From positions 1 through 20,054 of the forward strand of contig JBHLPW010000077.1 in the NCBI GenBank assembly GCA_048939015.1: a stretch of DNA of 20,054 nucleotides, in the 5' to 3' direction. Positions 2,718-6,377 of the stretch are shown in pieces. The DNA is from Promethearchaeota archaeon (GTDB lineage Archaea > Asgardarchaeota > Lokiarchaeia > Sigyniarchaeales > SOKP01). The notes under the pieces are model-generated. The model saw nothing but the letters and a program-made list of their open reading frames with translations, did not search any database and was not told the DNA's origin. Numbering within the stretch: the stretch's first letter is position 1; each line of letters opens with the position of its first letter. The position numbers and the translations under genes are program-made.

Positions 2718-3056
2718 CTACATCCATGACACAATTTTTTGAGTGTTAACCAAAATATCTACTAGATTTTCATATTCTATTCCTTTTACTTGATCAATAA
2801 GATTACTAGGATCCATCCCTCGAGCTTTTATGTCTGGAATTATAGCATAAATTTTAAAAGGTAGGAGTAAGATCTTTTTTAAAGATTCTGGAGTAACTCC
2901 TTTATTTGATGTACCAATCACACCGTCATGTATCAGAACAATAGATATGTCAACATTTAATTTTATTTGTTCTTTTAAGATCTCTAACATAGTTTCCAGT
3001 TTTACTTCTAATGTAGGGCTAAAACCATACAAATAAACAATAGAATTTGTCAACAT
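2718..3056 (-). CDS. dsrH: DsrH/TusB-family sulfur-relay protein
   Basis: LIHDGV, DIKARG and C-terminal YENLVDILVNTQKIVSW match the DsrH/TusB pattern. Third gene of an E-F-H triplet. SD GAAGGTGA; start is ATG 3056 or TTG 3053. Confidence 0.8.
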   Translation of the reverse strand: MLTNSIVYLYGFSPTLEVKLETMLEILKEQIKLNVDISIVLIHDGVIGTSNKGVTPESLKKILLLPFKIYAIIPDIKARGMDPSNLIDQVKGIEYENLVDILVNTQKIVSWM

Positions 3057-3072
3057 CAACTCACCTTCCTCA

Positions 3073-3441
3073 TTAATATTTGAAACTCATATCTGCTTCA
3101 AAAATAAGTTGAGATATTTCTTGAGTTCCAATAATTTTCATATTTTCCTCTAAGATAAGATCTGTTGATTCAATACCAGCAGTTTTTAACGCCTTATCAT
3201 GAACATATATCTCTAATTCAGAAAGTTCAATTAATCTTAGTATATTTGTAAAGCTATCTAAGTTTAATGCGCTTGGATTTAAGTATTTACTTAGAAAATA
3301 TACTGCATCTTTAAGTAGAATGACCTTACACAATTCAATATCGCCCACGGCAAGAATTCCAGCAGCCATCCGTATTGATTCCACCACAGAGTTTTTACCA
3401 AAGGGAGAGTCTTCACAAATAATGACCACAGAGTTTACCAT
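3073..3441 (-). CDS. dsrF: DsrF/TusC-like (DsrE/F family) sulfur-relay protein
   Basis: SPFGKNSVVESIRMAAG and LLKDAVY fit the DsrE/F fold. ATG 3441 follows SD GGAGGGTGA, which overlaps the upstream stop codon. Confidence 0.75.
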   Translation of the reverse strand: MVNSVVIICEDSPFGKNSVVESIRMAAGILAVGDIELCKVILLKDAVYFLSKYLNPSALNLDSFTNILRLIELSELEIYVHDKALKTAGIESTDLILEENMKIIGTQEISQLIFEADMSFKY

Positions 3442-3446
3442 TCTTT

Positions 3447-3815
3447 TCACCCTCCAGGACCAAAAAATATCACTTTATCAGATCTAGCGATTAAATCAGA
3501 GAGCCCTCCTAATCCTTCTCTAGCTGCTCCATCAATAAATTCCTCAACCTTTATTCCTGTAAAACTTATCCAGGTGCTACATGCTATAGGTTCTGCGTTA
3601 TTTTTTTTACAAAATTCTTTAAGTCGATTTGATAAATTACGAGTAGTGGCATCCTTCAAAGTTCTTTCTTTAATATTATAGACACCACTACCATATAGGA
3701 AAATTCCTAAAATTTCGTGTCCTTTCTCAATCATGGCTTCTCCTAAATTAATCATAGTATCTATTGCTTCATATTTATAAGGCTCTGCACAAACTATAAA
3801 AGAAAAAGTTACCAT
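3447..3815 (-). CDS. dsrE: DsrE/TusD-family sulfurtransferase
   Basis: EPY motif, GHEILGIFLYGSGVYN, Cys in IACST at the position of the DsrE/TusD persulfide Cys, and C-terminal GLGGLSDLIARSDKVIFF. Confidence 0.82.
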   Translation of the reverse strand: MVTFSFIVCAEPYKYEAIDTMINLGEAMIEKGHEILGIFLYGSGVYNIKERTLKDATTRNLSNRLKEFCKKNNAEPIACSTWISFTGIKVEEFIDGAAREGLGGLSDLIARSDKVIFFGPGG

Positions 3816-3894: not shown

Positions 3895-4596
3895 CTATCG
3901 ATCCTTTTTTATATTAAATTTTTCCCAATTCTTATACATAGCTAATAAATTATCAATTTCTCCAAAATTTTCTTTTATATCGAAATGTAAAGTTTTTGTT
4001 GCTTTAAAGTATTCACCATTAATTTGATTACTCTCTAACATTTCTCTTAATACTCTTATTACATTTAGATCATAAAAATGAGACTCTTTACAAATATCTT
4101 TTAAATTAATCTGCTTAATTTTAGAACTATAATCCAATATCATTTTCTTCAATAGAGATTCTTTAAAAGGTTTTTTCTGTCTATAATAAATACTAAAGAA
4201 AACTAAATTATATAAACCTAAGAAAATCCAGATTCCAAAATTGATGAAAAAGTTAAAAGATAGTTTGAAAAAGTAATCAGGAGAAAGATTATCTATATAG
4301 ACACTTATAAACATAATTGAATAATTAATACAAAGAGCTACTAATCCTACTATATTTATAATCAAAAATCGTGAAAATCTATAATTAAAAATATAATAAT
4401 ATGAAATGAATAATAATAACATTCCAAAATAACCTCCTGGAATAAATCCTGCAAAATTTAACATACGCCAACCCAAACCTGTATTTCCATATTCAATAGT
4501 GATTGGAAAGAATAAAGTTGTTATATAGATTACTAATGTAAGTAGATATAGTATAGAGCTTAATTGAGTTTTTGAAATTTTTCTGTATTCTGGCAT
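3895..4596 (-). CDS. Membrane protein (about 4 TM helices) with C-terminal PCI-like winged-helix domain
   Basis: Hydrophobic N-terminal ~140 aa. C-terminus LKKMILDYSSKIKQINLKDICKE...VIRVLREMLESNQINGEYFKATKTLHF...EIDNLLAMYKNWE resembles the PCI/winged-helix tail I recall from Lokiarchaeal proteins. Confidence 0.6.
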   Translation of the reverse strand: MPEYRKISKTQLSSILYLLTLVIYITTLFFPITIEYGNTGLGWRMLNFAGFIPGGYFGMLLLFISYYYIFNYRFSRFLIINIVGLVALCINYSIMFISVYIDNLSPDYFFKLSFNFFINFGIWIFLGLYNLVFFSIYYRQKKPFKESLLKKMILDYSSKIKQINLKDICKESHFYDLNVIRVLREMLESNQINGEYFKATKTLHFDIKENFGEIDNLLAMYKNWEKFNIKKDR

Positions 4597-4756
4597 CTCT
4601 ATTCAATAATATTGTAAAATAACAATATATAATTTTTTTTTGATAAATTAAAGGTTAGGGTATTTTGACAGAAAATGACTATAAAATTCAATATTTCCCT
4701 TGATGTTAAAATGAATAAAAAATTTAAAAAAAAATTATAAAAGATTTAGAACTCCA

Positions 4757-5677
4757 TTATAAAGGTTTTATAGCTTTTACTTTAATACTAGTACTATCAA
4801 CATCCAATTGATCCAGTTCTTTAACTTTTTCAATTTGGTCTCCTAAAGCATCTTTGATATTATCATCACTCAGTAAAAATTCTGTTGTAGAGAAATTACT
4901 TTGATCCAATATTTCGACATTTTGAAAACCAGCCTTATTAATGGCTTCAATATACTTATCTTTCATGATTGCTCCACCTATACAACCTATATAAGCTTGT
5001 ACATTTTTTCTAACAGCTTCAGGAAGCTCTTTCAGTAAAACAATATCTGAGACCATTATTCTTCCTCCTGGTCTAAGTACACGAAACGCCTCGCGAAAGA
5101 CATTTTCTTTATTTGGAGCAAGATTAATCACACAATTGGATATAATGAGATCGACTGAGTTATCTGCTACTGGTAAGTGTTCAATCTCACCAAGTCTAAA
5201 CTCAACATTATCGTAATTACCATTCCTTGCATTTTCACGAGCCTTATCAATCATCGAAGGGGTCATATCTACACCAATAACCTTTCCAGTTATGCCAACT
5301 TTTTTCGCTGCAATAAAGCAATCTAATCCCCCTCCTGAACCAAGATCTAAGACCGTTTCACCTTCCTGTATTGAAGCATGAGCTGTGGGGTTCCCACATC
5401 CAAGAGCTAAATTGGATCCATCTGGAATGCTATTCAAGTCATCTTTAGTATAACCCAATTTATTACTATATTTTTCTAGAAAATCATCCATCATATCAGC
5501 AGGAATCCTAATTGCACCACCACAACTTTCAGAGCTGCAGGAACTCTCAATTGTTTGACTAGAATCTGTTGATGGACCACAACAACTTGAAACTCTTCGA
5601 CGAGTTGCTACTTTACCATATTCCTCTCGTACCATTTTTCTGATTTTTTCTTCATCAATAGTTTTTTCTTCAACCAT
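4757..5677 (-). CDS. arsM: Arsenite S-adenosylmethionine methyltransferase
   Basis: LGCGNP, SAM motif [38 protein letters not shown], plus the VREEYGKVA...SSCCG N-terminus typical of ArsM. SD GGAGGT 6 nt before ATG. Confidence 0.93.
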
Positions 5678-5719
5678 GTTTATACCTCCATTATTTTTTT
5701 ATCATTTTATACCTTTAAA

Positions 5720-5758
5720 TAGGCAGTAGCCAAGTGTTCCATTAAGGACTACTACCCA
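5720..5758 (-). other. 12-bp RNA stem-loop in the hgcC-arsM spacer
   Basis: Minus-strand UGGGUAGUAGUC / GGCUACUGCCUA pair fully, using three G.U wobbles, around a 15-nt loop. On the plus strand those positions become A-C mismatches. Confidence 0.5.
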
Positions 5759-5840
5759 AATTTTTTTTTGATTTTCAAGTGCTTTTATCGCTCCATCTTT
5801 ACCGCATTCTTGAGTAATTTTATTAATTGTTGTCGTCGTT

Positions 5841-6155
5841 TCATTGTTCTTCCTTCTTATTTGTTTGTGTATCTTCCCGTCTAACTACAATTTGTAAAAC
5901 AGGACTTAATGCATCTTGTACCATTGGCTCTAACATATTTGATTTCATCAAGATCAAGCAACAAGGTCTTCCTCCTGGTGCTACATTTACTATTGCAAAT
6001 TTGTCTCCTTCGTTTATGTTTTCTTTTTCCCGAAGATCTTTTGGTAGCAATATTTGGCCTTTCTTATCAACAGTTACAAGTGCTTCAACCTTGCAACACT
6101 CAGAATCCGAAGTCGATGGGCAACACGCAACTTTTTGATTCTCTTGTCCGGACAT
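5841..6155 (-). CDS. hgcC: Cys-rich AbrB/MazE/SpoVT-fold protein, HgcC (HgcAB-associated protein)-like; probable regulator
   Basis: CCKVEALVTVDKKGQILLPKDLREKENINEGDKFAIV...CCLILMK is a swapped-hairpin AbrB fold flanked by CC pairs, as in HgcC. Start moved to ATG 6155 because a BRE/TATA lies 22 nt upstream, inside the longer ORF-track version. Confidence 0.78.
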   Translation of the reverse strand: MSGQENQKVACCPSTSDSECCKVEALVTVDKKGQILLPKDLREKENINEGDKFAIVNVAPGGRPCCLILMKSNMLEPMVQDALSPVLQIVVRREDTQTNKKEEQ

Positions 6156-6177
6156 GATAATTATAAGAATTTTTTTC

Positions 6178-6193
6178 TTTATAAACTTTTTCC
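6178..6193 (-). promoter_or_regulatory. Archaeal BRE + TATA box for a leaderless hgcC-arsM transcript
   Basis: Minus strand reads GGAAAAAG-TTTATAAA, with the TATA ending 22 nt before ATG 6155. Confidence 0.65.
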
Positions 6194-6377
6194 TCAATTT
6201 CGGATTTTTCTTACTTTTCCTATAATTCATTAATTATCAATATTCAAATTGAATAACTGAAATTAAGAAATAGTTTCAAGGTTAAATAAAGGGTTAATAA
6301 TACTATCAAAAATCCGGTAATGAAAAAAGCTTGGGAAGAAATAGATTATAAGATTTCAGATCCAATTTCATAAGAAG

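Follow-up and report, generated by a model that had tools for sequence, protein, structure and literature searches.

The DNA analysed here is a 20,054-nucleotide stretch from a Promethearchaeota archaeon of the Asgard group (assembly GCA_048939015.1, contig JBHLPW010000077.1, positions 1 to 20,054), referred to below as the window. Its minus strand carries hgcC, a gene for a small cysteine-rich protein of the AbrB type, followed by arsM, a gene for an As(III) S-adenosylmethionine (SAM) methyltransferase. Our subject is the HgcC protein, the repeat array that overlies its promoter and the family of loci to which the pair belongs. The initial annotation, made from the letters alone, had described a transcription factor B recognition element (BRE) with a TATA box, a 104-aa protein with three cysteine pairs and an arsM with its own Shine–Dalgarno (SD) sequence, and each of these was recovered on the minus strand at the coordinates given there. 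In the order of transcription, the features of the locus are:

6187..6222, minus strand: candidate HgcC operator, four direct 9-bp repeats in phase, the last of which overlaps the BRE
6178..6195, minus strand: hgcC promoter, consisting of the purine-rich BRE GAGGAAAAAG (6195–6186) and the TATA box TTTATAAA (6185–6178)
6161..6169, minus strand: inverted half-site TTCTTATAA, lying past the TATA box and ahead of the ATG, and continuing the 9-bp phase of the repeats upstream
5841..6155, minus strand: hgcC, encoding a 104-aa AbrB/SpoVT-fold protein with three vicinal cysteine pairs and a long C-terminal helix
5678..5840, minus strand: hgcC–arsM spacer of 163 nt, with a stem-loop, a TATA-like element and an SD, and free of oligo-T
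4757..5677, minus strand: arsM, encoding a 306-aa As(III) SAM methyltransferase with three catalytic-site cysteines
4717..4734, minus strand: likely archaeal terminator of the unit, T9 and then T6 just past the arsM stop codon

hgcC runs from an ATG at 6155 to a stop codon that ends at 5841, and its product carries vicinal cysteines at residues 11–12 (ACCP), 20–21 (ECCK) and 65–66 (PCCL). Its assignment to the HgcC family was borne out by hidden Markov model (HMM) search. The HgcC equivalog model NF040962 matched with 95.5 bits (cut-off 70) over 69 of 70 profile positions, and AbrB-type models also exceeded their cut-offs (TIGR01439 AbrB, 37.2 bits against 28.3; PF04014, MazE_antitoxin/AbrB, 32.1 bits against 24.7). 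Neither HTH_5 nor HTH_20 appeared in a Pfam scan of the protein at E ≤ 1, and at the same threshold the Pfam and NCBIfam scans returned only MazE/AbrB/MraZ-type and HgcC families, with no ArsD-family match. An AlphaFold2 monomer model, built on a 95-sequence alignment (predicted local distance difference test score, 83), has strands at residues 21–28, 52–58 and 66–71 and helices at 39–44 and 72–98, the latter being the long C-terminal helix. Across the family, the N-terminal cysteine pair is conserved at 74–82%, the pair that immediately precedes strand 1 at 93–100% and the one that opens the last strand at 99%, and the pairs are kept in arsM-linked and hgcA-linked members alike. The third pair has been lost in one Asgard family (f7, L116–L123), which has AS or SS in place of CC and retains the first two pairs; these loci still have arsM downstream and carry direct TTTTCTGAA repeats ahead of the TATA box. 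Close relatives of the window protein are annotated as coming from Hodarchaeota, Promethearchaeota and Thorarchaeota, which identifies the host as an Asgard archaeon.

The region upstream of hgcC holds the candidate operator. Four half-sites, TAGGA (6222), TAAGA (6213), TCCGA (6204) and GAGGA (6195), follow one another in direct orientation, and the inverted TCTTA (6168), which is the reverse complement of TAAGA, is conserved in all loci of the window's clade. In all five Asgard loci of this clade, 22 nt separate the end of the TATA box from the ATG. Because this spacing is constant and fits standard archaeal promoter geometry, the hgcC mRNA is probably leaderless, with transcription starting on the ATG. 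A 129-aa open reading frame (ORF) from an ATG at 6230 was rejected as the gene, since it would start upstream of the TATA box, inside the repeat array, and the 22-nt spacing is conserved. Several database homologues (P0006, P0010, P0014, P0016 and P0019) are 110–125 aa long and carry an N-terminal extension that begins MGKKFIKK; this is probably the promoter and repeat region (6156–6230, minus strand, in the window) translated from an upstream ATG, their starts having been mis-called.

The array in the window is a diverged version of a far more widespread one, with the same 9-bp phase, and a phased array is shared with the Asgard orthologues. Among 78 loci outside the window's clade, the motif TCWGA occurs on average 2.1 times in the 130 nt upstream of hgcC, compared with 0.23 times in 6,745 control windows drawn from those loci, a ∼9-fold enrichment. 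Successive copies are spaced by 9 nt in 52 cases, by 18 nt in 25 and by 27 nt in 9. In bacteria, the array begins at the −10 box or directly after it; in methanogens, Thermoplasmatota and most Asgard lineages, it flanks the TATA box on both sides. Loci of the arsM and hgcA types both carry it, with an overlap of the −10 region or TATA box in either type, and so do a locus linked to an FTR1-family permease gene (L105) and one where arsM is divergent (L077). As hgcC is the sole gene common to all array-bearing loci, the most parsimonious candidate for the protein that binds the array would be HgcC itself.

The change in half-site in the window's clade coincides with a change in the β1–β2 loop of the protein, where DERGQMV becomes D(K/R/A)KGQIL (DKKGQIL in the window); related Asgard lines with CGGA-type half-sites have the loop KGQIY(F/L)SK. 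This pattern is suggestive of co-divergence between the protein loop and the operator half-site. The triple-repeat pattern of the window occurs once in the 4.86-Mb host genome, and a search of that genome, including the regions ahead of the HgcAB-like loci described below, found no further operator copies. Since the triple repeat is found nowhere else in the genome, there is no sign of a wider regulon.

The initial annotation had asked whether hgcC homologues sit next to arsM or hgcAB, and both arrangements proved to be common. Scanning bacteria and archaea with a single genome for each species yielded 591 relatives, from which 80 loci were kept; these were picked by the peptide pattern RGQMVLPK (a 24-sequence subset) and ranked by similarity to the arsM-linked HgcC of the window. 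In 57 of the 80 loci, the gene immediately downstream of hgcC, in the same orientation, is arsM; in 17 it is hgcA, in most cases with hgcB next. In one further locus (L077) arsM lies divergently upstream of hgcC, and five end at a contig edge, one of which (L042) shows a terminal arsM fragment. Every tested arsM-type partner (53/53) matches the ArsM model NF008823, and every tested hgcA-type partner (15/15) matches the HgcA model NF040863 with the canonical NVWCAAGK cap-helix motif. In 42 of 53 loci, fewer than 100 nt separate hgcC from arsM, and some pairs overlap by 4 nt; co-transcription is strongly implied for the relatives with overlapping genes. Because the flanking genes vary widely, hgcC and its partner appear as a self-contained module, and in most cases no further regulator gene lies close by.

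In a maximum-likelihood tree built from 84 HgcC sequences, the grouping largely follows host lineage. The arsM-linked and hgcA-linked proteins are intermixed on it, with 12 and 9 label changes, respectively, and well-supported branches force at least 3–4 switches of partner. The window HgcC falls in a clade of five Asgard arsM-linked sequences with 100/99 support. That the same family precedes true hgcAB, and that arsM-linked and hgcA-linked members do not separate on the tree, supports a role for HgcC in both the arsenic and the mercury methylation systems.

Among Asgard archaea, HgcC is distributed patchily, with matches above cut-off in 41 of 301 sampled genomes and in 6 of 22 from the window's genus. 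arsM adjoins hgcC in 27 of the 29 Asgard loci retrieved. One of the two exceptions, L105 (527–1764, genome G029), encodes an HgcC with cysteine pairs behind an upstream TCWGA array, followed by an FTR1-family iron/metal permease. The other, L106 (81–1373, genome G090), lies at a contig start and joins the first ∼60 residues of HgcC, up to CCISLIKAD, in frame to a complete class V fructose-1,6-bisphosphatase (619 bits); since the junction falls in a shared IKAD motif, the fusion is probably an assembly chimera. Elsewhere, L003:1438–2247 (G000:C17:32356–33165) encodes a cysteine-free 88-aa AbrB-type protein (27 bits to HgcC, 30.9 bits to PF04014) and, just 1 nt further on, a SAM methyltransferase of 180 aa, with a paralogous methyltransferase gene just upstream. 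The pairing of an AbrB-type protein with a methyltransferase may thus, from this locus, reach past the cysteine-rich HgcC family.

The downstream gene of the window encodes an orthodox ArsM. It scores 339 bits against NF008823 (cut-off 263), and its cysteines in the segments GCGNP, SNCVINL and CIGGA align with those of the solved Chlamydomonas ArsM (5evj). The protein has an N-terminal CC at residues 32–33, and N-terminal CC...CC motifs are carried by the ArsM partners of HgcC. Its SD, GGAGG at 5689–5685, lies 7 nt upstream of the ATG. Prediction of a complex between an HgcC dimer and ArsM gave scores of 0.01 and 0.11 (mark, 0.32), which make no call for or against binding.

Whether hgcC heads a transcription unit with arsM, as the initial annotation had it, can be judged from the intervening DNA. 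Runs of five or more T are absent from the hgcC promoter to the 3′ part of arsM, where a single T5 lies within the coding sequence (4879–4875), and the T9 and T6 runs follow only after the arsM stop; read-through from hgcC into arsM is therefore plausible in the window. Set against this part of the claim is the 163-nt gap itself, with its stem-loop (∼5720–5758) and the TATA-like element CTATTTAAAGGTATAAAA at 5722–5705. A structured-RNA reading of the entire spacer found no support, as its minimum free energy is no better than that of shuffled sequences (z −0.94), although relatives do share one stem-loop. In exact-protein look-ups, Asgard relatives show either hgcC–arsM or hgcC–MT2–arsM followed by dsrE–dsrE–dsrH. 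MT2 is an extra methyltransferase of 267–273 aa that close relatives carry between the two genes, coupled translationally to hgcC (L009:2829–3650; L010:6312–7115; L110, L113 and L115), and that is absent at 5678–5840 in the window. It overlaps hgcC by 4 nt in L010 and follows it after a 1-nt gap in L009; it scores 108 bits against ArsM and 107 bits against DVU_1556, both below cut-off.

A gene survey across the window found hgcA, hgcB, acr3 and arsC all absent, and the only winged helix-turn-helix protein of the ArsR superfamily there (13972–14247) is free of cysteine, in agreement with the initial annotation's statement that no Cys-bearing ArsR, acr3, arsC, hgcA or hgcB lies in the window. 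The host genome is a metagenome-assembled genome (MAG) of 29.8% G+C with 6.5% contamination; in this ∼95%-complete MAG, the only ArsM match above cut-off is the arsM of the window, Acr3 was not found and no hgcA reached the equivalog cut-off of 275 bits. The genome-wide search for hgcAB that the initial annotation had proposed thus turned up nothing bona fide within the limits of the MAG. Two loci carry HgcA-like genes, C99 with 172–174 bits and C50 with 170 bits. At C50 (L005:779–2538), a CpaM methyltransferase gene (243 bits, cut-off 180) is followed by one for an 'HgcAB-like fusion protein' (375 bits, cut-off 285). C99 (L004:769–2785) encodes a 552-aa CpaM–HgcA-like fusion with the cap helix NVWCAARGN and, after it, an HgcB-like ferredoxin ending in CCG; both are below cut-off. 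By their sequences, these HgcA-like genes are CpaM/HgcAB-like paralogues and not bona fide hgcAB, and neither hgcC nor a phased repeat lies upstream of either.

The reading we favour, with moderate confidence, makes HgcC an autoregulated repressor of the AbrB/MraZ kind, controlling hgcC–arsM in response to metal(loid)s or thiol state. HgcC would be a small swapped-hairpin transcription factor, acting as a dimer or higher oligomer, and would occupy TCWGA-type half-sites that are arrayed in 9-bp phase across the promoter of its own gene. In the window this array would consist of the four direct, diverged T(A/C)(A/G/C)GA repeats running into the BRE, together with the single inverted TCTTA that lies past the TATA box and ahead of the leaderless start. 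In this position, HgcC could block TBP/TFB or RNA polymerase and so repress hgcC and, via read-through, arsM. Its vicinal cysteine pairs might then take up a thiophilic ligand, As(III) or methyl-As(III) here and Hg(II) in the hgcAB-linked members, or change their thiol state; either event would release the DNA and switch on the methyltransferase. Repression by HgcC, metal(loid) sensing by its cysteines and co-transcription of arsM in the window are all steps that we infer. More tentatively, HgcC could be the founding member of a new metalloregulator class, in which a repressor with an AbrB fold would detect As(III), MAs(III) or Hg(II) by its vicinal cysteine pairs and recognise half-sites arrayed in 9-bp phase.

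The initial annotation had left open whether such proteins are regulators or metallochaperones, and the regulator half of that proposal gains from the phased array, which accompanies hgcC whatever gene follows it. A chaperone role, which we consider quite unlikely, would be akin to that of ArsD: the cysteine pairs would pass As(III) or Hg(II) to the Cys-rich N-terminus of ArsM or to the C-terminal CC of HgcB/HgcA, and the AbrB fold would be a scaffold for dimerisation only. ArsD, MerT, MerA and HgcB all transfer metal via vicinal cysteines, and the three conserved pairs of HgcC, the CC...CC motifs of its ArsM partners, the lack of a basic character in HgcC and the tight, often translational coupling of the genes, which suits stoichiometric co-expression, would fit this role. 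It leaves unexplained, however, why the array should accompany hgcC in bacteria and archaea and why the family should occur with an FTR1 permease gene or a divergent arsM, and HgcC shows no Pfam or NCBIfam similarity to ArsD. A regulator whose cysteines sense redox state, or hold an Fe–S or Zn centre, instead of sensing As or Hg would share with the favoured repressor all of the operator and fold evidence, and would couple the expression of the oxygen-sensitive methylation enzymes to a reduced, anoxic environment. All hosts recovered are strict anaerobes or come from anoxic habitats, six cysteines per monomer are enough to ligate a cluster, and the f7 proteins keep arsM and the array without the third pair, so that the full set is unnecessary for the pairing. 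We nonetheless regard this as unlikely: the partners are exclusively two thiophilic metal(loid) methylation enzymes and, once, a metal permease, rather than general redox genes, and CC pairs are typical ligands of soft metals and poor ligands of Fe–S clusters.

That HgcC is instead a type II antitoxin of the PrlF/MazE kind, left over from a degenerate toxin–antitoxin module and adjacent to arsM by chance, is hardly credible. The names point that way, MazE_antitoxin being the best Pfam name for the protein and 'antitoxin PrlF' the JGI name of relatives, some of which give weak PrlF_antitoxin matches. A toxin gene is absent next to hgcC in the window and in ∼100 related loci, where arsM or hgcA lies downstream, and on this ground the antitoxin was rejected; conserved cysteine pairs are moreover not an antitoxin trait, and the family-specific HgcC model far outscores the generic one.

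Several observations weigh against, or fail to strengthen, the repressor that we favour. Structure searches with the monomer model (Foldseek against the PDB, and VIA-align) returned nothing above Z 5, the weak matches being SpoVT (Z 3.3), AbrB-N (Z 2.6), C68/C56 and B3-type proteins, which speak neither for nor against the fold; the weakness of these matches may follow from the monomer being one half of an obligate swapped dimer. A sequence search of the PDB with HgcC gave only chance armadillo-repeat hits and marginal AbrB/SpoVT ones. The whole protein is slightly acidic, with a net charge of −2, and in a manual alignment HgcC appears to conserve only one of the four arginines critical in Bacillus subtilis AbrB. 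The covariation of loop and operator is essentially a single evolutionary event, and the ratio of arsM to hgcA partners is biased by the RGQMVLPK selection and by the arsM-linked query. L007 and L013 share both the stem-loop and the TATA-like element of the spacer, so arsM may also be transcribed separately from its own promoter. Finally, arsR lies within ∼3 kb in ∼10 of 62 arsM-type loci, and some Methanothrix loci have both regulators in the order arsR< arsC> hgcC> arsM>. The initial annotation's idea that HgcC replaces ArsR was thus too strong: with arsR nearby in these loci, HgcC is not simply an ArsR substitute.

The proposed logic nevertheless resembles that of the ArsR/SmtB family, in which a small autoregulated repressor stands at the head of a metal(loid) operon and is released when As(III) binds its thiols. 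The two differ in that ArsR/SmtB proteins are winged helices, whereas HgcC would have a swapped hairpin and lacks HTH_5, and in that the ArsR/SmtB operator is a single palindrome while the candidate HgcC operator is a multi-copy 9-bp array. A link between arsenic sensing and hgcAB is common to the HgcC proposal and the ArsR/SmtB regulators, including that of Pseudodesulfovibrio mercurii ND132, where an ArsR-like regulator is co-transcribed with hgcAB (Gionfriddo et al. 2023, as cited in PMC10349881).

With AbrB, SpoVT and MraZ, HgcC shares an N-terminal domain by HMM membership; the structural matches to SpoVT and AbrB-N are weak, and its putative binding to short phased repeats would be a further likeness. 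MraZ reads spaced TGGGN repeats. HgcC has in addition a Cys-rich tail at its N-terminus, CC pairs beside the barrel strands and one long helix at its C-terminus, and to our knowledge no AbrB-fold regulator uses cysteines or senses metals. ArsD is similar in being a small protein of an arsenic operon with several vicinal cysteine pairs, and it was historically first taken for a repressor. It differs in its thioredoxin-like fold and in serving the ArsA pump rather than a methyltransferase, and has no sequence similarity to HgcC.

The family itself has been catalogued. The NF040962 entry, 'HgcAB-associated protein HgcC' (near_HgcAB), corresponds to the gene of PMC10349881, and the window protein belongs to the same family, with the same AbrB-type core and cysteine pairs, the same place at the head of an operon and a phased TCWGA-type array upstream. 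The entry was named for its hgcAB neighbourhood; the window and most of the retrieved loci have arsM downstream instead, and the window half-site has diverged to TARGA from the TCWGA of other HgcC loci. Zhang et al. 2023 (PMC10349881) described a prlF/mazE/abrB-like 'TA gene' that immediately precedes hgcA on 14 contigs with hgcAB (given as ∼39%) and in 8 of 31 confirmed methylators, and put it forward as an archaeal regulator. The initial annotation's 'new type' of sensor must therefore be tempered, as the family was already catalogued and a regulator role upstream of hgcA already proposed. Our literature search found this to be the only relevant paper and returned none on a link between HgcC and arsM, on the cysteine pairs or on the operator. 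What the window adds is a putative regulator of the AbrB type, proposed to sense metal(loid)s, that belongs to an Asgard archaeon and whose candidate operator has diverged.

The other genes of the window have unrelated functions. hgcC is flanked downstream by arsM and upstream by an adenosine deaminase gene, and the remaining genes encode an acyl-CoA ligase, a short-chain dehydrogenase/reductase, an old yellow enzyme, a thioesterase, an SH3 protein and an ABC-2/CPBP cluster. A sulfur-relay-like DsrE–DsrE–DsrH trio (2718–3815, minus strand) follows arsM, as it does in L009, L010 and L013. Between the two, in the window only, lies a gene for a 233-aa protein with predicted membrane segments and no family (3895–4596). 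The SH3 protein (9430–9774, plus strand) is 114 aa long and consists of two variant SH3 domains, a eukaryote-like signature that fits an Asgard host.

How the expression of hgcAB and of anaerobic arsM is controlled is a long-standing question, and the presence of these genes is a poor predictor of methylmercury or methylarsenic production. In many anaerobes, a single regulator family heads both gene sets, with a candidate operator that is now defined to the base, and this shared family suggests a common signal for the arsenic and mercury methylation pathways. If confirmed, HgcC would add a new fold to the metal-sensor families and could serve in metagenomes as a better marker of inducible methylation than arsM or hgcA alone. 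Should the more tentative reading of HgcC as a new class of metalloregulator hold, one family would be a common switch for arsenic and mercury methylation in anaerobic bacteria, methanogens and Asgard archaea, with protein loop and operator co-diverging in the clade to which the window belongs.

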